Assembly (NCBI GenBank): GCA_003556605.1
Contig: PWQX01000086.1
Location: forward strand, 21,023-85,022
Direction: 5' to 3'
Length of the DNA: 64,000 nucleotides
Source: Spirochaetaceae bacterium
Lineage (GTDB): Bacteria; Spirochaetota; Spirochaetia; DSM-27196; SLAA01
Position 1 is the stretch's first letter, and each line of letters opens with the position of its first letter. Below, piece by piece: positions 24,110 to 61,217 of this stretch. The translations under genes were made by a program, and so were the position numbers. The notes beneath the pieces were generated by a model. The model did no database searches and was not told where the DNA came from. It worked only from the letters and a program-made list of their open reading frames with translations.

Positions 24110-24124
24110 TAAGGAGAACAATAG

Positions 24125-24394
24125 ATGCCGCTCAGTAAGGAAAAAAAGCACGAAATCATCGTCCAGTTCGGGAACGGCGAGCAGGATACCGGTAAGACCG
24201 AAGTTCAGATCGCTATGCTGACCACCCGCATTGAAGAGTTAACCGGGCACTTCAAAGCGCACAAGAAAGACCATCATTCCCGGCGCGGGTTGTTGAAGCT
24301 TGTCGGCCAACGGCGGCGCTTGCTCAAATACCTCCGGCGCAAAGATCTTGACGCGTACCGAGCTTTGATCAAGCAGCTCGGGCTCCGCAAATAG
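24125..24394 (+). CDS. rpsO: 30S ribosomal protein S15
   Basis: 89 aa. [29 protein letters not shown] signature. Confidence 0.97.
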
Positions 24395-24429
24395 CATATC
24401 GGAACAGTGAAGACAAGGATTAGGAAGTA

Positions 24430-28440: not shown

Positions 28441-28448
28441 CTTGTATT

Positions 28449-29531
28449 ATGGTGGTTACGCTCGACCGGTTCATCCTCAAACAACTCGTTGCGAGCTTAC
28501 TGGTGAGTCTCAGCTTTTTCGTGCTGTTGCTGCACGTCATTGAGCTTTTCGCGAATATTGGTCGCTACCTCTCGCTTGAAATTGAGATGCGCGAGGTCCT
28601 GCGGGTCCAGCTTTTGTATATTCCAAAGTCGGTGTCACTTTCGTTGCCGTTGGGGATGTTGTTCTCGGTAAGCTACACACTCGGCATGATGTATAGCCGC
28701 AACGAACTAATCTCGGTGTTTGCCGGCGGCATGCCGCTACGGCGCTTTGTGACGCCCGTGGTGGTCACTGGAGCGCTAATGAGCGCCGTGGGTTTCTGGT
28801 TCGAGGAAGCGGTGGTGATTGAGTCCTACCGGCAGAAAAACGCGTTGCAACGAGAGCTTTTGCAGGCGCACCGCGACTTCAGCAACCCCGATGTCGCGGT
28901 CTTGGGTGACGCTAACCGCATTGTCTACATCGCCGATTTCTACGACGCCGACCGCCGGACGCTGTCACGGGTACTCGTGGCGGTGCGCAACACTGACGGT
29001 GAGTTGCTGGAACGGATCGACGCCGGGTCGGCGCGCTGGAACGGAAGTGCTTGGGAGTTCCAGAACGTCCGCCGATACACCCGCACCGTCGGCGATGAGC
29101 GGTTTGAGCGTCAAGACCTAAACACTTACACCGACTCGCGCTTTGACACCGAACCCAACGTGTTTGCGCGCTTAACGCGTGAGATCGCCGAGATGCCGCT
29201 GGAGCAAGCGCACGCTTGGGTAGAGTCTTTACGCGCGGCGGGGTTACCGCATCGCCGTCAGTTAAGCGAGGTCTACGAGCGCTACGCGTTTGCCACTACA
29301 CCTCTACTCATGGCGTTGTTTGCCACCGGTGTAGGCTCGCGACTGAAAAAAAACGTGCTGCTCGGCAGTTTGCTTACGTCGGTTTCGCTTGCGGTAGTCT
29401 ACTACGTCGCCCGCATGGTCTTGAATCTACTGGCGGTTTCCGGTAGCGTTGAGCCGCTGTTCGGGGCGTGGGCGCCTGTCGGGGTGTTTCTTACGCTCGG
29501 TATTGCGCTGTTCCAACACGCGCGAACATGA
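28449..29531 (+). CDS. LptF/LptG (YjgP/YjgQ) family permease
   Basis: N-terminus LDRFILKQLVASLLVSLSFFVLLL, six-TM architecture with a central soluble domain. Adjacent paralogue. The ORF was trimmed from 28305 to ATG 28449. Confidence 0.8.
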   Translation: MVVTLDRFILKQLVASLLVSLSFFVLLLHVIELFANIGRYLSLEIEMREVLRVQLLYIPKSVSLSLPLGMLFSVSYTLGMMYSRNELISVFAGGMPLRRFVTPVVVTGALMSAVGFWFEEAVVIESYRQKNALQRELLQAHRDFSNPDVAVLGDANRIVYIADFYDADRRTLSRVLVAVRNTDGELLERIDAGSARWNGSAWEFQNVRRYTRTVGDERFERQDLNTYTDSRFDTEPNVFARLTREIAEMPLEQAHAWVESLRAAGLPHRRQLSEVYERYAFATTPLLMALFATGVGSRLKKNVLLGSLLTSVSLAVVYYVARMVLNLLAVSGSVEPLFGAWAPVGVFLTLGIALFQHART

Positions 29532-29574
29532 GCATGTACTGCGTCATAAGTCGATCAAAGAGTGAGCAACACCG

Positions 29575-38506: not shown

Positions 38507-39493
38507 ATGCAAGCAGTAGCACGAATGCGCACAGTGGCACTAAGCGGCGTCGTCTGCGCGGCGCTGGTGTTGATTGCAACGCCGAGTGGGGCGTTGCAGC
38601 GGTTGCCTGCCCGCGACCCGTTCGCCACCGCGGTACAGCAATTTCGGGCGGGTAATTTTCGCGAAGCGGCAGACACATTTGCGGAGACCGCTGAGCTGGA
38701 GCCGAGCTATGCAGCGCCGGCGCTGTTGTGGAGCGCAAAGGCACTGATAGCCGCAGATCAGCTCAGCGCGGCCGAAGCCCGGCTGGAACGGGTGCGCAGC
38801 GAGCATCCGGGCACCGAGCCCGCCGCTGAAGCGTTGTATCAGCTCGGACGGGTGGCGTATATCGATGAAAAATACGGCAGAGCACTGGGGTATTTCTCAC
38901 GCTTCGTTGACGTGTATCCGAGCTCACCGTTTGTCGGCAACGCGTACTACTGGGCCGGCGAGTCGCTGTTGTCCCTGGGGCATCTTGATGAAGCCGAGAC
39001 GATGTTCGCCACAGTGGTAGAGCGCTTTCCTGACAGCTATCGCACCGCGAACGCCGAGTCACGCCTAGATCTCATGCAGTTACGCCGCCGCGACGCGTAC
39101 TTCCGGCGCTTGTTGCGCTGGAGCCATGAAGAGCAACTGAGCCTCATCGAGGAGCTTGATCGTCGCGATCAAGCGCTGCGAGAGGCAGTCGACGATTATC
39201 GAATCCGGCTGTTAGAGCAGGCGCCGAGCGAATACCGCGCCCAGCTGTTGGATCTCGAGCAGCAGCGGCGGGCGCTCGAGCAGCGCTTACAGCAGCGCGA
39301 GCAGCGGATTGCAGAGCTCGAGCAAGAAGTCTACGAGCTGCGTGATGCACAGGCAGCGCCGGAGACTACGGTACGCGCGTACCGGCGGCGTTTCGAAGTG
39401 CTGGAGCTCAAAGCAGAAGCGCTGGAGTTGCGCCGGCAGCTCCTTGATAGATTGCTCGAGCAGGAGCGCCGCAGGCCGGGAGGGGCGGAGTGA
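38507..39493 (+). CDS. secreted TPR protein with a C-terminal Q/R/E-rich coiled coil
   Basis: Signal-like N-terminus (VALSGVVCAALVLIA), YbgF-like TPR units (AEALYQLGRVAY...; GNAYYWAGESLLSLGHLDEAETMF), then a long heptad-like region. Start is uncertain (GTG 38477 or ATG 38507). Confidence 0.65.
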   Translation: MQAVARMRTVALSGVVCAALVLIATPSGALQRLPARDPFATAVQQFRAGNFREAADTFAETAELEPSYAAPALLWSAKALIAADQLSAAEARLERVRSEHPGTEPAAEALYQLGRVAYIDEKYGRALGYFSRFVDVYPSSPFVGNAYYWAGESLLSLGHLDEAETMFATVVERFPDSYRTANAESRLDLMQLRRRDAYFRRLLRWSHEEQLSLIEELDRRDQALREAVDDYRIRLLEQAPSEYRAQLLDLEQQRRALEQRLQQREQRIAELEQEVYELRDAQAAPETTVRAYRRRFEVLELKAEALELRRQLLDRLLEQERRRPGGAE

Positions 39494-40626
39494 AACGCAC
39501 ACGCTTATCGGTGTGGGTGGTCACCGCAGCAGCGCTCGGGGCTTGTATCGCTGCGGTACCGGGTTTAACGGAGCTCTCGGCCGAGCCAGGCCGCCGCGCA
39601 ATAGCAGAGCTAGAGCGCGGCCGCGTACGGCTGGAAGTGTACTCCGGCCGCGACGGCTTCATGCTGTGGTATCTCGATCCACACGATGAATGGACACCGC
39701 TGTTATTCCGTGGAGACCCTGCGGCAACGGTAATGGCGGTTCGCGACGGCGATCGTATCGTGGATTTGGGTCGCTCGTCGCGTATAAGCATGCAACAAAC
39801 CGAGCGTCGCGGGCACGCTGTCGTACAACGGTTCGTCGGTTTTGATATGGCGATCGACCGTGTCTTTACCCCGGTTCGCTCGCGGGGCTCACAGCGAGCT
39901 GACGGCATTCGTATTGTAATTACGCTCCATAATCGCTCGAACCAACGCCGGAATCTCGGGTTACGCGTCCTCTTTGATACCTATCTCGGCGAAACAGCCC
40001 CGGGCGAGGCTGGTCATTTCCAACTCGACCGAGGGTCGCCGGTGCGGTTCGAGACCAGCCTAAGACCTGAACAAGAATCGGTGCGGTACTGGCTCACGCG
40101 CGCGCCGGATCGCCCGGAGCTAACGCTGCAGCAGACGCTGCAGGGCGGCGGTGTGACCATCCCGGACCGGGTGGTGTTTGCCAACTGGAAGCGCTTGTTC
40201 CAGAGTACCTGGGATTACACGGTCTTACCGTCGCGGCGGTTCAGCGACCCCCCGTATTCGTTAAACGATTCGGCGGTTGCCGTGTACTACAATCCGGTTT
40301 CAGTGCAGCCGGGAGCAAGCCGAGAGATTGTGATAGTGCTCAGCGCCTACGCCCCGGTCGGCTTCGACGATATCGAAAACCGCGAGGATGCGCATTTTCC
40401 GCCGGTTCCCGACGATGAGCCTCCGCCGTTACACCGGCGTGAACCTGACGAGTTTGCGATCATGAGTATGAGCCCGGAACGACGGGCGGAGTATCTTAGA
40501 CGATTGGAGGAATTAGACGCGTTGATCGCCGATTTGGAGCACGAAGCCGAACGACCGCAAGAGTTGACCTTGAAACGCTTACAGGAGCTGCGCCAACGGC
40601 TGGATGAGTTGCGTAAACCGCAGTAA
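39490..40626 (+). CDS. hypothetical exported protein
   Basis: 378-aa ORF. GTGA overlap with the upstream gene, N-terminal signal/anchor (LSVWVVTAAALGACIAAV), C-terminal helical region. No family recognised. Confidence 0.6.
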   Translation: MKRTRLSVWVVTAAALGACIAAVPGLTELSAEPGRRAIAELERGRVRLEVYSGRDGFMLWYLDPHDEWTPLLFRGDPAATVMAVRDGDRIVDLGRSSRISMQQTERRGHAVVQRFVGFDMAIDRVFTPVRSRGSQRADGIRIVITLHNRSNQRRNLGLRVLFDTYLGETAPGEAGHFQLDRGSPVRFETSLRPEQESVRYWLTRAPDRPELTLQQTLQGGGVTIPDRVVFANWKRLFQSTWDYTVLPSRRFSDPPYSLNDSAVAVYYNPVSVQPGASREIVIVLSAYAPVGFDDIENREDAHFPPVPDDEPPPLHRREPDEFAIMSMSPERRAEYLRRLEELDALIADLEHEAERPQELTLKRLQELRQRLDELRKPQ

Positions 40627-40628
40627 TC

Positions 40629-41732
40629 ATGGCGAGGTCGAAATCAAAAGGGCTCAAACGCGCAGAGCGACTCTTCCGCCGCCGGCGGTACAGCGAGGTA
40701 ATTCGGCTGCTCGAGCCTCAAGTGTTCATGTACCGTGACCGCCCGATGTTTTATTATTACCTCGGCGTCTCGTGTTTACACACCGGCGATTTCGGAGGGG
40801 CGTACTCGTACCTGCAGCGGGCACAGCAACTTGACGCCGATAACATAAACATCGGACTAGCGCTCGCGGCAATCGCAATGCGGCGTCGCCAAACCGACCT
40901 CGCGCTGCGACTGTATCTCTCGGTACTGGACCGGGAACCTAAAAGCCCAATCGCAAAGCGAGGGCTTACAGCGCTGCGGCGGGCTGAAAACGAGAACGAA
41001 CTGGCCGAAGAGCTCGATCAAGGCGGAATCGGCCGTTACTTGCCGTGCCCCGGACCGTACCTGCCGCGGCCGCTGCTGATCGGTACGCTTGTAGCAGCCT
41101 TGGCAGCTGTGCTCGCCGTTATGCTGCCATCTGTGGTGGAGCGTTTCAGTGACCCCGCGGCACCGGAGCGTGACGGCGTTGAAGTGCTCGAACTCGAGCA
41201 CATGCAGCGCGACGTTGTACAGTACGAGGGTGAGTTTCGGTATGTCTTGACCACCGACGAGATTCGCGACACCTTTGAGCGCATCGGCGATTACTTCAAC
41301 CAGTATCGTGACAACGAGGCGCGCCGGGAGATCAACCGCATTGTACACTCGAACGCGCACCACGAGATGAAAGAGCGGGCGCGATTACTCGCTGAGTATC
41401 TTCAGACGCCGAGCTTCACAAACTTTGCGGCCGAGGACAGCTTCACGTACGAGGAGGTGCAGGCTGAGCCCCGCCTGCACGACCAAACCTACGTTCGCTG
41501 GCGCGGGCGTGTTGCAAACCTGCGGCACAGCGAAGAAAAGATCGAGTTTGATTTCCTCGTAGGCTACGAAGATGAGCGTGTGCTGGAGGGCATAGTTCCG
41601 GCACGCCTGGAGTTCTCCGCCCGAGTGGAGCCGGCTATGCCGGTTGAGCTCATCGGCAGAGTCGTAACCGACAACGGCTTCGGTAGACTCGAGGTCGTCT
41701 CAATTCGTCGTATATCACCGCAAGTCGGCTGA
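40629..41732 (+). CDS. TPR-domain membrane protein
   Basis: Starts 2 nt after the upstream stop. N-terminal TPR units (YYYLGVSCLHTGDFGGAYSYLQRAQQLD), one TM helix (LLIGTLVAALAAVLAVML), and a C-terminal domain of unknown family. Confidence 0.65.
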   Translation: MARSKSKGLKRAERLFRRRRYSEVIRLLEPQVFMYRDRPMFYYYLGVSCLHTGDFGGAYSYLQRAQQLDADNINIGLALAAIAMRRRQTDLALRLYLSVLDREPKSPIAKRGLTALRRAENENELAEELDQGGIGRYLPCPGPYLPRPLLIGTLVAALAAVLAVMLPSVVERFSDPAAPERDGVEVLELEHMQRDVVQYEGEFRYVLTTDEIRDTFERIGDYFNQYRDNEARREINRIVHSNAHHEMKERARLLAEYLQTPSFTNFAAEDSFTYEEVQAEPRLHDQTYVRWRGRVANLRHSEEKIEFDFLVGYEDERVLEGIVPARLEFSARVEPAMPVELIGRVVTDNGFGRLEVVSIRRISPQVG

Positions 41733-42300: not shown

Positions 42301-43449
42301 TCACATAAACAGCTTTGGAGAGGACAAATACGTGCGGGCATGAAAATCATCGAAGAAAGGCGAAAGCGACTGCTCCTCATTCATTCGCATAATCAGCTCA
42401 GCACTCAGACGGGCCGAAGACACCACCTGCAGCGACGGCAATCGGCGCTTGAGATCCCCCGACACATCCAGCGTATCGGTAACCAAGACAGTGTCGAGCA
42501 TGCCGTTGTCGTACAACCACCCGAGGCGGTCTACAGCCGGACCCGAAAACACGGGATGGATGATCGCAATGTGGACCTTGGCAACCCCGCGCTTCTTGAG
42601 CTCTTGCGCTAAGGTGTGAATAGACCCGCCGGTGTCAATCATGTCGTCCACGATCCATACTTCTTTTCCGCTCAGCGGAGAGTCGCTGAGGATAGTGGTG
42701 GATTCCACGGTATTGGCTCTGTTGTAGGCACGTTGCTTGTGCGCGATTACAAGATGTGTGTCGAACGCACGCGCGAACTTCTTGGCAATCCCCTCGCCGC
42801 CGGCATCCACCGAGCAGAACAGCCACTGTTTCTGGACATAATCGGTCAGCACCTCGTTGGTCTTAATGAAGTTTTCGGCAATGTACTCCTGCAGCAATGG
42901 CACCGCCGGCACGTCGTCGATCGCACACAGACGCGGGTCGACAACGGTCTTCGACTTATCTGAATGCAGCTGATAGGTGATGATATGGTCCACTCCGAGG
43001 CTCATCAGGGTCTTATAGTGTATCCAGAACCCAACTGAGTTTCGTCGGGTAGTACGGTCGGAACGCGATGCGCTGCAGTACGTCTCAAACAGCGTGATGC
43101 GTTGCGGTTGCGCGCGGCGGATAGCGTCGATACAGTGATACAGCTCCATCTTGTTCTGTTCAACCGTCAAGCTCTGATTATTGCGGCCCGCCTGGGCGAA
43201 CAGGAATACGTCGCGACCTCGCACCGAGCTTTGCAACTCGACCTCGATCTCACCGTCGGCAAACTGCACCGGTCGCAACTCACCGACGTAATTCGCGCGT
43301 CTATGGGTAGCGTGGAAATCGGGGAACGTTTCAAGTTGATGTGCGACCCGCGCGGCATAGTCGTGCATTGAACGCGTAGACAGAAGCAATAAGTCGCCCC
43401 GCATATCACTTAGCATAGCGTAACTCGTATTGACCTGCAAGATATGCAC
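42301..43449 (-). CDS. prs: ribose-phosphate pyrophosphokinase (long form)
   Basis: PRPP-binding loop VWIVDDMIDTGGSIHTLA. Architecture consistent with Prs. GTG start. Confidence 0.88.
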   Translation of the reverse strand: MHILQVNTSYAMLSDMRGDLLLLSTRSMHDYAARVAHQLETFPDFHATHRRANYVGELRPVQFADGEIEVELQSSVRGRDVFLFAQAGRNNQSLTVEQNKMELYHCIDAIRRAQPQRITLFETYCSASRSDRTTRRNSVGFWIHYKTLMSLGVDHIITYQLHSDKSKTVVDPRLCAIDDVPAVPLLQEYIAENFIKTNEVLTDYVQKQWLFCSVDAGGEGIAKKFARAFDTHLVIAHKQRAYNRANTVESTTILSDSPLSGKEVWIVDDMIDTGGSIHTLAQELKKRGVAKVHIAIIHPVFSGPAVDRLGWLYDNGMLDTVLVTDTLDVSGDLKRRLPSLQVVSSARLSAELIMRMNEEQSLSPFFDDFHARTYLSSPKLFM

Positions 43450-43554
43450 CTATAGTATGCCCAAAGACAAGCAGTATGCAGACGGCGCCGGTTATTAGTA
43501 GGTAGTGGGGGCACAGCGCTCACCACTGCATTCCACCGGTCAGCGAGGAACGAA

Positions 43555-44631
43555 ATGGCGAAAAAGGAACAGGTCTCCGCTCCTGGTAACCAAGAGGAGC
43601 GCAATCGTGCACTTGAGGCTGCTCGCCTCAATATCGAGAAGCAGTATGGCAAGGGCTCGCTCATGAAGATGAGCGAGGGGCGCCAGATACAGAATATTTC
43701 GGTAATCCCGAGCGGCTCGATCCTGCTCGACGAGGCGTTGGGACTCGGAGGCTACCCCAAAGGGCGCGTTGTCGAGGTCTACGGCCCCGAGTCTTCCGGT
43801 AAAACCACTTTAGCGCTGCATGCTATTGCCGAAGCGCAGAAGCAGGGAGGTATTGCGGCGTTCATCGATGCCGAACACGCCCTTGACCCGGTATACGCCG
43901 GGCACTTGGGCGTCAATATCGATGAGTTGTGGGTCTCGCAACCCGACACCGGCGAGCAAGCGCTGGAGATTGCCGAATCACTGGTGCGATCGGGCGCAGT
44001 AGACATCATTGTCATCGATTCGGTGGCTGCGCTTACGCCACAAGCCGAGATCGAAGGCGAAATGGGTGATTCTCATGTAGGCTTGCAGGCGCGACTCATG
44101 AGTCAGGCGCTTCGTAAGCTTACCGGTACCCTGCACAAGTCCGGCACTTGCATGATCTTCATCAACCAGATCCGCATGAAGATCGGCGTAATGTTTGGAA
44201 ACCCTGAAACCACCACCGGCGGAAAGGCCTTGAAGTTCTACTCATCGGTACGTTGTGAGGTGCGCCGTATAGAGACAATCTCAAAAGGCGCCGACGAGGC
44301 AATCGGCAACCGGGTACGCGTAAAGATCGCCAAGAACAAGGTAGCGCCCCCGTTTCGCAAGGTCGAGCTTGAGTTGATGTTCGGTACCGGTCTCTCGGCG
44401 TCCGGCAGTTTGCTCGATGCCGCGGTGAAGTACAACATTTTTCAAAAAAGCGGCAGCTGGTACTCATACGGCGAGGAGCGTATAGGGCAGGGTCGTGACA
44501 ACGTGAAGCAGTTTCTCGAGAACAACCCCGAGATCGCGGCACAGGTTGACGCGGAACTGCGAAAACTGATGTTTCCGGCCGTCGAGCCGGGAGAGCCTGA
44601 GCAATCAGGCGATGAAGGCGATGAGCACTGA
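43555..44631 (+). CDS. recA: recombinase RecA
   Basis: Walker [33 protein letters not shown], acidic C-terminus. 358 aa to TGA 44629-44631. Confidence 0.98.
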
Positions 44632-44844
44632 GGCGCCGAGCCGAAGACTAAGCAGAGCCCGAAATCAGGCGCCCGCAAGAAGCCGTCTGCCGTGACAGGG
44701 ACAAGCACAGGTGCTACCGCACAAACCGGCTCGAGCTCCGGTGTCTCCGCCTCCAATACCTCTAACGCCGCCGCGTCACCCGATCCCGAGCCCGCTTCGG
44801 TTGCTGAGCCGAAGCCAGAGCCGGCCGAGGATGAGCTGTTCTGA
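44632..44844 (+). other. 70 sense codons in frame with recA after its TGA, ending AEDELF-TGA (possible lost or read-through C-terminal extension)
   Basis: My own translation gives GAEPKTKQSPKSGARKKPSAVTGTSTGATAQTGSSSGVSASNTSNAAASPDPEPASVAEPKPEPAEDELF*. Third codon positions are mostly G/C, as in the flanking genes. Confidence 0.35.
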
Positions 44845-44888
44845 TCAAACCGTTCATTCGAGGATCACAAACGGCCCCTCGGTCGAGC

Positions 44889-45365
44889 GTGTATGTGGGG
44901 CTCGGCAGCAATATGGGCGACCGCGAAGCAACGCTCACCGCAGCAGTTGTGCTGCTGCGTGGGTGCTTTGGTGGGCTGGCGGTCTCTCGGTTGTATGAGA
45001 GCGAGCCGCAATACGATCACAATCAGCGGCGGTTTCTCAACGCGGTCGCGGGAGGGCCAACGCAGCTCGGACCCTTTGAGCTGCTCGACCGGCTGTTGGC
45101 GATTGAGAAGCGTTTCGCTCGGCGGCGCGACGTCGAGCGTCCAAAAGGCCCGCGAACGCTGGATCTCGACCTGCTGCTGTACCGTGACTGGATTGTACAC
45201 CACCCGCGGCTCGCGCTTCCGCATCCCGGTATGGTTGAGCGTGCGTTTGTGCTAATCCCGTTAGTGGAGCTGGACCCCGCCGTGCGCGACCCCCGTACCG
45301 GAATCACGTTTGCAACCTATCTCTCGCAAGCCGATTCGGAGGGGATTTACCCGATCACCTCCTGA
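44889..45365 (+). CDS. folK: 2-amino-4-hydroxy-6-hydroxymethyldihydropteridine diphosphokinase (HPPK)
   Basis: VYVGLGSNMGD, RTLDLDLLLY, LPHPGMVERAFVLIPL. GTG start. Confidence 0.9.
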   Translation: MYVGLGSNMGDREATLTAAVVLLRGCFGGLAVSRLYESEPQYDHNQRRFLNAVAGGPTQLGPFELLDRLLAIEKRFARRRDVERPKGPRTLDLDLLLYRDWIVHHPRLALPHPGMVERAFVLIPLVELDPAVRDPRTGITFATYLSQADSEGIYPITS

Positions 45366-46709: not shown

Positions 46710-47426
46710 ATGCGCCTGCACCGCTTCATGGCAAAGGCCGGCGTGGCTTCTCGTCGCCGTTGTGAACGCTTGATTGAGGAAGGGCGCGTCAAGGTTAACG
46801 GACGTCAAATTATCCGCCAGGGTGAGACGGTAGGGCCCGACGACGTCGTCACCTTCAACGGCAAGCGTCTGCGCATTACCGCCGCGCCGGTGTACCTCGC
46901 GATGAACAAGCCCCCGCGATATCTCTGCAGCAATCACGATCCGGCAGGCCGTCCGCTGGTGATTGACCTCTTGCGCGACACGGTAAGCGAGCGCGTGTTC
47001 ACTGTGGGACGCTTGGACTTCATGTCGACCGGTCTCATCCTGCTCACCAACGATGGCGAGTTTGCCCGGATCATATCACATCCCTCCAGTAAGATCGAAA
47101 AGGAGTACCTCGTAGAGTCCCGGCGGCCGATCTCGGAGGAGATGCTCGAGGGCTACCGGAAGGGAATCCGTGTGGAAGGCGAAACCTATAAGCTGAAATC
47201 ATACCGCATCAAGAATGCGCGGCGTGTCCACCTGGTCCTCGAAGAAGGCAAGAACCGCGAGATTAGGCGCGTGTTTACGCATTTCAACGTAGCTTTGCGC
47301 CGAGTCCACCGCATTCGCATCGGTACTCTGTGGCTCGACAATCTGTCGCCCGGCATGTTTCGCCCGCTGAACGACCGCGAGATGCACAAACTGCTGGCGC
47401 TTGCCGCCCAACAGGAAAACGCATGA
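46710..47426 (+). CDS. rluB: rRNA pseudouridine synthase (RluB/RsuA family)
   Basis: S4 domain (MRLHRFMAKAGVASRRRCERLIEEGRVKVNG) and the catalytic motif GRLDFMSTGLILLTNDGE. Confidence 0.88.
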   Translation: MRLHRFMAKAGVASRRRCERLIEEGRVKVNGRQIIRQGETVGPDDVVTFNGKRLRITAAPVYLAMNKPPRYLCSNHDPAGRPLVIDLLRDTVSERVFTVGRLDFMSTGLILLTNDGEFARIISHPSSKIEKEYLVESRRPISEEMLEGYRKGIRVEGETYKLKSYRIKNARRVHLVLEEGKNREIRRVFTHFNVALRRVHRIRIGTLWLDNLSPGMFRPLNDREMHKLLALAAQQENA

Positions 47427-59262: not shown

Positions 59263-59682
59263 TTAGTACAGCTCTCCACGCAGCTCGTCGCTGTCATGCA
59301 GAAGCGCCTTTCGAAGTTCTCGAATTGCGCCCTGCATATAAACGCGACGGTGCTCTTCGTCAACCTGTTCTAGCCCGGCGTAGAACTGTCCGAATCCCGA
59401 GTATATTAACGCCGTACGGTCCATTGGATTCTCAGCGAGTCGCGTTTCAGTCTCGGCAATAAGGTCTTGGTATCTCTCTTCAGACCATAGTTCAGCTAAC
59501 TCGGCGCGTCCGGCAGCGCGCACCACGTTGTAAAAAAACCGGTGCCCACCGAACAGCACAAACGCCAGCACCGACAAGAATACCACAGATGCTAAAATAC
59601 TTCCGGCTATCATGCGAGCAGATGGCTCTTGTCGTGTCTTCCCACGGGAAGCAAAGTTGAAGCGCGCTCTGGGGTATCTCAT
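59263..59682 (-). CDS. membrane-anchored TPR-like protein (N-terminal half of a possibly split gene)
   Basis: TM helix IAGSILASVVFLSVLAFVLF followed by helical repeats. Ends at TAA 59263-59265. ATG 59682 is preferred over the TTG 59718 given in the ORF track. Confidence 0.55.
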   Translation of the reverse strand: MRYPRARFNFASRGKTRQEPSARMIAGSILASVVFLSVLAFVLFGGHRFFYNVVRAAGRAELAELWSEERYQDLIAETETRLAENPMDRTALIYSGFGQFYAGLEQVDEEHRRVYMQGAIRELRKALLHDSDELRGELY

Positions 59683-60168: not shown

Positions 60169-61197
60169 CTAATCGACTTCGTCGAAATCAGCATCCTCAT
60201 CTTCCTCGTCTTCTTCCTCCAGATCATCTTCTTCGAGGTCATCTTCGTCTTCCTCGAGCTCCGCCTCTTCGTCCTCGTCAAGATCATCGTCGGTTTCGTT
60301 CAAATCGAGAGGTTCTTCATCGAGCACATTTTTATCGGCATCATCGAGCGCTTCATCGTCTTCACTATCGTCTATATCGGTGGTGACAATGCTGCTATCG
60401 TCGTCAAAATCATCGTCGTCGAAGTCGCCGAGTTGACCCATAAGATCGACAAGGCCTTCGGCATCATCCTCAGGCGTCGGCAGATCTTCATCACCCATGT
60501 AGAAGACAATCTTGCTGCAGTATGGGCAGAATTTGATTTCGGAACCTTCGCGCACCTCGTTGACGAACTGATTCGGGAGAATCATTTGACACCCGCTACA
60601 CACACCCTTGCGCAGCGACACAATGCCTTCGCCCTCTTTGCTGCGAATGATGCGTTCGAACTTAAACAACAGCTCAGGATCGAGATCAGGAACGAGTTCG
60701 TGCTCGTCGGTCTGCAGGTTTCTCAGCTGATCCTGCTTTGCTTCTGTCTCGCCCTTGATTTTGGCCTGCTCCTCGGCGAGCTCACCCTCCTGCTGTTGTA
60801 TCATCGCTTCTTCGCGTTCCAACGAGTGCGACATCTCTTGGAAACCCTTTTCTTCACGCTGCAGCTCTTTGCGAAGCTCTTGCTCGCGCTCACCGGCGTC
60901 GCGGATCTCCTTATCGAGTGCTTCGTACTCGCGCTGCGTTTTGATTAGGTCCATTTGTCTCTCATAGCGTTCGCGCTCGCGCTCGGCTTCCTCGAGACGG
61001 AGCCTGAGATCGGTGATCTTCTTGCGAATCGCCTCGTACTTCTCGTTGTTCTCGATGTAGGTCTTCTTGAGGCGATTCAGCAGCTCGGTCTTTGTGGCGA
61101 GTGACTTGGGCAGATCGCGTATCTCAGCCTCGATCGCGAACTTCTGGGATAGTACGTTTTGTAAGGCGCGCAACTTATCGATTACGTCGTGGATCAT
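60169..61197 (-). CDS. coiled-coil / C4 zinc-ribbon protein (COG1579, DUF164-like) with a ~105-aa polyacidic C-terminal tail
   Basis: Long N-terminal coiled coil (QREYEALDKEI...), zinc ribbon CSGCQMILP...FCPYCSKIVF, then a tail of roughly 60 percent D/E ending DADFDEVD. Confidence 0.8.
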   Translation of the reverse strand: MIHDVIDKLRALQNVLSQKFAIEAEIRDLPKSLATKTELLNRLKKTYIENNEKYEAIRKKITDLRLRLEEAERERERYERQMDLIKTQREYEALDKEIRDAGEREQELRKELQREEKGFQEMSHSLEREEAMIQQQEGELAEEQAKIKGETEAKQDQLRNLQTDEHELVPDLDPELLFKFERIIRSKEGEGIVSLRKGVCSGCQMILPNQFVNEVREGSEIKFCPYCSKIVFYMGDEDLPTPEDDAEGLVDLMGQLGDFDDDDFDDDSSIVTTDIDDSEDDEALDDADKNVLDEEPLDLNETDDDLDEDEEAELEEDEDDLEEDDLEEEDEEDEDADFDEVD

Positions 61198-61217
61198 CAG
61201 CGTGACTCTCCTGTTCT

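Follow-up and report, generated by a model that had tools for sequence, protein, structure and literature searches.

The recA gene in the 64-kb stretch of spirochaete DNA analysed here (referred to below as the window) is interrupted by an in-frame TGA, and the 70 codons that follow this stop are, close to certainly, the severed C-terminal tail of the RecA protein itself. What the window carries is a nonsense variant (or a base error) of a long-tailed recA, and as such it is ordinary in kind. The full-length protein of this species has 429 residues, in which the folded core and the C-terminal domain are followed by a disordered linker of approximately 90 residues and by a short E-L-F tip. The single base responsible for the interruption, a C-to-G transversion at position 44630, is probably a real, strain-specific nonsense allele, this being likelier than an error in the consensus sequence.

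The features of the locus are listed in Table 1. The reading frame and its continuation were found to be as reported in a preliminary description of the sequence: RecA ends in ...GDEGDEH directly before the TGA at 44629–44631, and the frame then stays open for exactly 70 codons, to a second TGA preceded by the tip AEDELF. The translation of this stretch, in the same frame as recA, is GAEPKTKQSPKSGARKKPSAVTGTSTGATAQTGSSSGVSASNTSNAAASPDPEPASVAEPKPEPAEDELF, which ends in ...PEPAEDELF. The codons for E-L-F (44833–44841) are in frame but are situated beyond the premature stop, and the ORF as it stands in the window has no E-L-F-COOH terminus. That ORF does contain the complete RecA core (PF00154, residues 18–281) and the RecA_C domain (PF21096, residues 284–337), together with the first 21 residues of the tail, an acidic stump with a net charge of −7. 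It matches the TIGR02012 RecA equivalog model over residues 15–336 with a score of 545.4 bits, against a cut-off of 325.3. The Walker A P-loop, GPESSGKTT, is found at residues 77–85, and the invariant block of the conserved L1/L2 region is also present. None of the RecA domains recognized by Pfam and NCBIfam extends past residue 337, and the premature stop, at codon 359, lies downstream of them all.

Table 1. Features of the recA–folK locus, in window coordinates
Feature	Position	Strand	Remarks
recA as read in the window	43555..44631	+	358 codons and the premature TGA
Premature stop, TGA	44629..44631	+	TCA (Ser359) in four conspecific assemblies; the sole difference is G for C at 44630
Severed 70-codon RecA tail	44632..44841	+	Low-complexity K/S/T/G/A/P linker, predicted to be disordered
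Codons of the C-terminal tip, A-E-D-E-L-F	44824..44841	+	E-L-F-COOH is nearly invariant in spirochaete RecA
Native recA stop, TGA	44842..44844	+	Stop used by the full-length conspecific genes
True recA–folK intergenic spacer, 50 nt	44845..44894	+	folK is called 50 nt past the recA stop in L001–L003
folK (HPPK)	44895..45365	+	PF01288; TIGR01498, 118 bits (cut-off 54)

The length of the open frame carries little of this argument. An earlier guess that an open stretch of 70 codons would be a 5–10 percent event was about right: in the window, the G+C content of which is 57.5%, 10.7% of the stop-to-stop intervals reach 70 codons or more. At least 70 open codons also follow the stop in 13 of the 57 long ORFs of the window. 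By length alone the open frame is weak evidence, and neither its length nor the size of the gap in which it lies is special, a crude tiling of ORFs having left several other ORF-poor stretches of 250–450 bp. The gene-like preference for G or C at third codon positions that had been pointed out in the extension was borne out by measurement: third-position G+C is 0.70, as compared with 0.68 in recA, 0.71 in folK and 0.72 in scpA. A separate small gene beginning at GTG 44692 (50 aa) was considered and rejected, as its codons are no more than the last part of the RecA tail, in the same frame; inspection by eye of the sequence just upstream of this GTG revealed no GGAGG-like ribosome-binding site.

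It is comparison with close relatives that identifies the extension. A protein search in which the query was the read-through translation of the window recA and its extension returned three RecA proteins of 429 residues (P0001–P0003), 99–100% identical to the query over their full length, and one of 358 residues (P0004), the sequence of which is that of the window ORF; the stop form occurs on one contig only. A fourth full-length allele (P0121) was obtained from a cluster look-up. Ser occupies position 359 in all four of the full-length proteins, and the severed tail of the window corresponds to their residues 360–429, exactly in P0001 and P0002 and with one Lys-to-Glu replacement in P0003 and P0121. 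Homology, and not length, thus shows that the 70-codon stretch is not there by chance. Chance had been listed as an option in the preliminary description. The frequency of such stretches at the G+C content of the window, given above, would allow for an accidental open frame in a non-coding recA–folK spacer; this is nevertheless excluded, to the point of meriting virtually no credence, by the match at 69–70 of 70 residues to the C-termini of uninterrupted conspecific RecAs, and by the tip, conserved throughout the lineage, in which the frame ends.

The same conclusion is reached at the DNA level. Conspecific loci were available from four independent assemblies, of which three are GenBank assemblies, GCA_003566105 (L001), GCA_003562055 (L003) and GCA_003552375 (L084), and one is JGI metagenome 3300000362 (L002; contig name prefix SL_1KL_011_SED). 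The window is 99.65–99.81% identical to L001–L003 over 7–11 kb, which indicates that all of these are strains of one species, and over recA and its tail it differs from each of those three at only 2–4 of 1290 nt. At position 44630, L001, L002, L003 and L084 all have C where the window has G, giving TCA in place of TGA. These results support the first of the options put forward in the preliminary description, that a nonsense mutation or base-call error has truncated a longer RecA. Alignment with RecA from close relatives, which had been suggested there as a check, reveals a homologous tail that continues through the position of the stop, and among the relatives compared none was found in which RecA ends at GDEGDEH and is followed by stop-containing DNA.

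Among the five conspecific sequences, the amino acid sequence of the tail varies only at position 44650, where the window, L001 and L002 have AAG (Lys) and L003 and L084 have GAG (Glu). A single tail difference among five sequences makes the within-species dN/dS of the tail uninformative. In the next species (P0005 and P0007), an S-G pair is observed by eye, in unaligned sequences, at a similar place after the acidic stretch. Metagenome and genome contig collections were also scanned with a DNA pattern that spans the site and leaves the variable base open (N); the pattern matches the window and L001–L003, but it yielded no further copies in those collections. They therefore contain no contigs of this species, and the scans add nothing to the allele counts.

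The spacing of recA and folK can be understood in the same terms. The window recA stop is followed by a gap of 257 nt (44632–44888) to the next ORF, or of 263 nt to the folK start of the relatives (44895). It had been proposed that this gap fits an extension of RecA, and this is indeed what is observed: in the relatives, recA coding sequence, with the native stop counted, takes up 213 nt of it, and the true spacer amounts to 50 nt. No terminator-like site was found between recA and folK.

Upstream of the gene, a sigma-70-like promoter match was observed at 43430–43458 (TTGACC, a 17-nt spacer and TAGTAT), approximately 97 nt upstream of the recA start. This match lies in a divergent intergenic region that is shared with a minus-strand ribose-phosphate pyrophosphokinase gene. 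Elsewhere in the window, a crude greedy tiling of ORFs left ORF-poor stretches of 270–450 bp at 24110–24429, 28441–28818, 29122–29574, 59263–59628 and 60949–61217, any of which may contain a small gene, an RNA or a regulatory region.

The long tail is not confined to one species. Among the best 120 RecA matches, 118 end in -LF, most of them in [DE]ELF; the two that do not are the truncated form (P0004) and one protein ending in ELLY. In the 119 homologues, the tail, measured from the end of the RecA_C domain, ranges from 32 to 120 residues in length (median 68), and A, S, G, E, K and P are abundant in it. The tail of the window, if read through, has 92 residues and is split by the TGA after the 21st. 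It is apparent that positional conservation in the tail is restricted to its very end, where E is present in 112 of the 119 proteins, L in all 119 and F in 118. The tail is acidic over its last 10 residues (−0.44 and −0.22 charge per residue) and close to neutral in its middle part. An acidic tip with a terminal aromatic residue, anticipated earlier from what is known of RecA tails, is thus what ...AEDELF provides.

The linker is too divergent and too rich in indels for a practical codon alignment between species, and synonymous codon diversity at the tip was used instead. In 51 species-level genome loci, the Leu of the tip is encoded by CTG (22), CTC (13), TTG (9), CTT (5) and CTA (1), the Phe by TTC (26) and TTT (20), and the Glu by GAG (29) and GAA (8). 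Such variation among synonymous codons indicates purifying selection on the peptide of the tip and not on its DNA.

As to taxonomic range, the long disordered ELF tail was found in many MAGs labelled Spirochaetaceae, Spirochaetales or Treponema. The remark in the preliminary description that some treponemal RecA proteins exceed 400 aa proved to be sound, in that RecAs of more than 400 aa ending in -LF are present in three Treponema-labelled MAGs (L040, L058 and L080). Sphaerochaeta-labelled MAGs and some other spirochaete MAGs have a short RecA of 340–361 aa that lacks the tip, which indicates that members of this phylum can live with a tail-less RecA. A limited literature search, which is not proof of novelty, found no description of the ELF-tipped spirochaete RecA tail.

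Structural comparison and modelling agree with this division of the protein into a folded body and a flexible tail. The window RecA aligns with E. coli RecA in PDB 3cmu across residues 13–341, and alignments with solved RecA structures reach no further than about residues 341–367. In an AlphaFold2 model built with 61 homologues, the predicted folded body extends to about residue 340, no secondary structure is predicted after residue 339, and pLDDT is below 50 at residues 344–409 and 413–429. No confident docking of the ELF tip is seen in this monomer model.

An in-frame UGA followed by a conserved coding extension resembles programmed read-through or selenocysteine recoding, and the preliminary description had included regulated UGA read-through, giving two isoforms, among its options. 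In that event the stop would be read by a near-cognate Trp tRNA, as selenocysteine or by a suppressor, and short and long RecA isoforms would be made by design. The frame beyond the stop is intact and under selection at the protein level, as such a mechanism would predict. Some basal misreading of UGA occurs in bacteria generally, and traces of the full-length protein may form in this way. Very recent descent from a gene without the stop, however, accounts in full for the intact frame. The stop is not conserved within the species, the four conspecific assemblies having TCA, and in none of 80 related genome loci (L004–L083, which represent other species only) does a stop precede an in-frame extension terminating in ELF. 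The ancestral codon specifies Ser, not Cys or Sec, and TGA is also the codon at which the gene natively ends.

Nor do the surroundings of the stop favour recoding. TGA is the commonest stop among the long ORFs of the window (27 of 57) and TGA-G the commonest four-base context (14 of 57), so that the TGA at 44629–44631 is a normal signal for termination. RNA folding of the 91 nt that surround and follow the stop gave no greater stability than that of shuffled sequences (MFE −20.3 kcal/mol, versus a shuffle mean of −22.8; z = +0.82). Neither a SECIS nor any other Rfam element was found in the search, the sole Rfam match being to sR49, with 17.6 bits (gathering score 50) and E = 0.74. ARAGORN detected no tRNA or tmRNA genes in the 64-kb window. 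With the stop unconserved, no structure downstream and no Rfam match above threshold, programmed read-through is unsupported and is considered very improbable.

A more substantial alternative is that the G at 44630 is simply a wrong base in a metagenome-assembled contig, the organism having TCA at this site and a normal RecA of 429 aa. This is regarded as the less probable explanation, but as one to be taken seriously. The stop is carried by one assembly (P0004, on a single contig), as against four with TCA. The tip that it removes is almost invariant in the 119 homologues, so that a true loss would be unexpected and would probably be costly. Nonsense changes in highly conserved housekeeping genes are normally selected against, and this, with the near-invariance of the tip, gives greater weight to an artefact or to a transient allele of low frequency. 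In addition, random errors, being unfiltered by selection, produce stops more often than real polymorphisms do.

Set against these considerations is the character of the other differences that are private to the window. There are 16 private SNPs in 11.3 kb, comprising 7 synonymous, 6 missense, 2 intergenic and 1 nonsense, and at the other variable sites the conspecific assemblies share their variants in a mosaic fashion. This pattern, rich in synonymous changes and biological in appearance, shows that the window represents a distinct strain, and it makes any single private difference likelier to be real than to be an error. The divergence of the strain, approximately 1.4 private differences per kb, is far above the consensus error rate that is typical of short-read assemblies. 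No other sign of poor assembly was detected in the 11 kb compared, in which the sole indel belongs to L002 and not to the window. Furthermore, the stop falls in a disordered part of the protein, where truncation is likely to be tolerated. On balance, we infer that the G at 44630 was present in the cells.

Two local observations were made during this comparison. Seven of the 16 private SNPs are situated within 39639–40652, where three synonymous and three missense changes fall in an ORF at 39490–40626 (378 aa, without a Pfam match) and one lies just after it; the SNP density of this stretch is approximately 7 per kb, versus approximately 0.9 per kb in the other 10 kb compared. The cluster may mark a tract of recombination or a gene that evolves rapidly. 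The indel in L002 is a base missing at window position 47407 (about 8853 in L002), relative to the window and L001. It alters the junction of the pseudouridine synthase and cytidylate kinase genes (258 + 195 aa in L002, instead of 238 + 213 aa). Whether polymorphism or error of assembly, it belongs to L002 and not to the window.

In this assembly the C-to-G change turns Ser359 (TCA) into TGA, and translation accordingly ceases 21 residues into the tail and yields a RecA of 358 residues. Seventy-one residues, Ser359 and the 70 that follow it, are missing, and with them the greater part of the linker and the whole of the ELF tip. Basal UGA misreading, mentioned above, might restore a trace of the full-length protein. 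The 213 nt left untranslated might also weaken the expression of folK, if recA and folK are co-transcribed. As the stop lies beyond all of the folded domains recognized in the sequence, the truncated product is probably functional, and not the product of a dead gene. In some respects the allele is like the ordinary nonsense alleles or incipient pseudogenes found in MAGs: the stop arises from a single base, an intact in-frame remnant follows it, and orthologues have a sense codon. It differs from the usual MAG pseudogene in that recA is rarely disrupted and in that the stop is placed after every folded domain.

What the truncated protein would do may be judged by analogy with E. coli. In E. coli, the C-terminal tail of RecA keeps filament nucleation and competition with SSB in check, and its deletion gives a more active protein. 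Removal of the tail reportedly relieves autoinhibition, in that SSB is displaced more easily and less Mg2+ is required. Engineered C-terminal deletions, such as RecA deltaC17, have been described (Lusetti et al. 2003, J Biol Chem 278:16372; Eggler et al. 2003, J Biol Chem 278:16389; both cited in PMC4457935). As in RecA deltaC17, the core and the C-terminal domain would be kept and a flexible tail lost, and in both proteins the lost end is acidic with a terminal Phe (...NEDF in E. coli, ...AEDELF here). On this analogy, the truncated RecA should retain its activity as a recombinase, perhaps under weaker restraint, and it would lose any partner of the ELF tip.

The analogy has clear limits, however. 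In contrast to the engineered E. coli deletion, the truncation here is natural (or an artefact), and it removes 71 residues and not 17. The 21-residue acidic stump would stay in place, so that electrostatic autoinhibition may partly persist. The tails themselves are also dissimilar. The spirochaete tail is predicted to be disordered and ends in Phe, with an acidic last 10 residues, but it is approximately 90 residues long and near neutral except for the last 10 or so; it is not a simple acidic tail, unlike the short, uniformly acidic one of E. coli. All of the functional consequences of the truncation are ones that we infer from this model, the tail of which is much shorter and more uniformly acidic.

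In its layout the native spirochaete tail is closer to another protein. Bacterial SSB carries its tip (SSB-Ct, ...DDDIPF) on an intrinsically disordered linker (e.g. PMC10164576). Both proteins have a folded DNA-binding body, then a low-complexity linker that varies in length and sequence, disordered in SSB and predicted to be so here, and finally, as the sole conserved element, a short acidic motif that ends in a hydrophobic residue and Phe-COOH. The motif is [DE]-x-E-L-F and not D-D-D-I-P-F, and it is found on RecA; the likeness is a lead from sequence and modelling and does not denote membership of the SSB-Ct class. Since SSB, and not the short tail of E. coli RecA, is the nearer parallel in layout, the ELF tip may serve as a docking motif, either for a partner protein or for RecA itself. 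A search of the other ORFs of the window found no SSB-like acidic tip, so that there is no tip of the organism's own SSB for comparison.

A bolder reading, offered tentatively and thought rather unlikely, is that the TGA is real and segregates in a soda-lake spirochaete population. It would then represent a natural loss of the SSB-like linker and ELF-COOH tip, placing a de-repressed or partner-blind recombinase beside the wild type in the same habitat. As a separate component of this reading, the linker and ELF tip may constitute a short linear motif, hitherto undescribed, by which a specific partner is recruited or which folds back onto RecA itself.

For annotation, the call of a 358-aa recA and the 257-bp gap behind it are misleading, and the gene should be flagged as having an internal stop relative to the 429-aa conspecific form. 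No recoding mechanism is called for by the recA of the window. If the stop allele is real, it would provide a natural experiment on the function of the ELF tip. Of greater interest than the stop, however, is the presence of a conserved linker and ELF module on RecA in a large group of spirochaetes.
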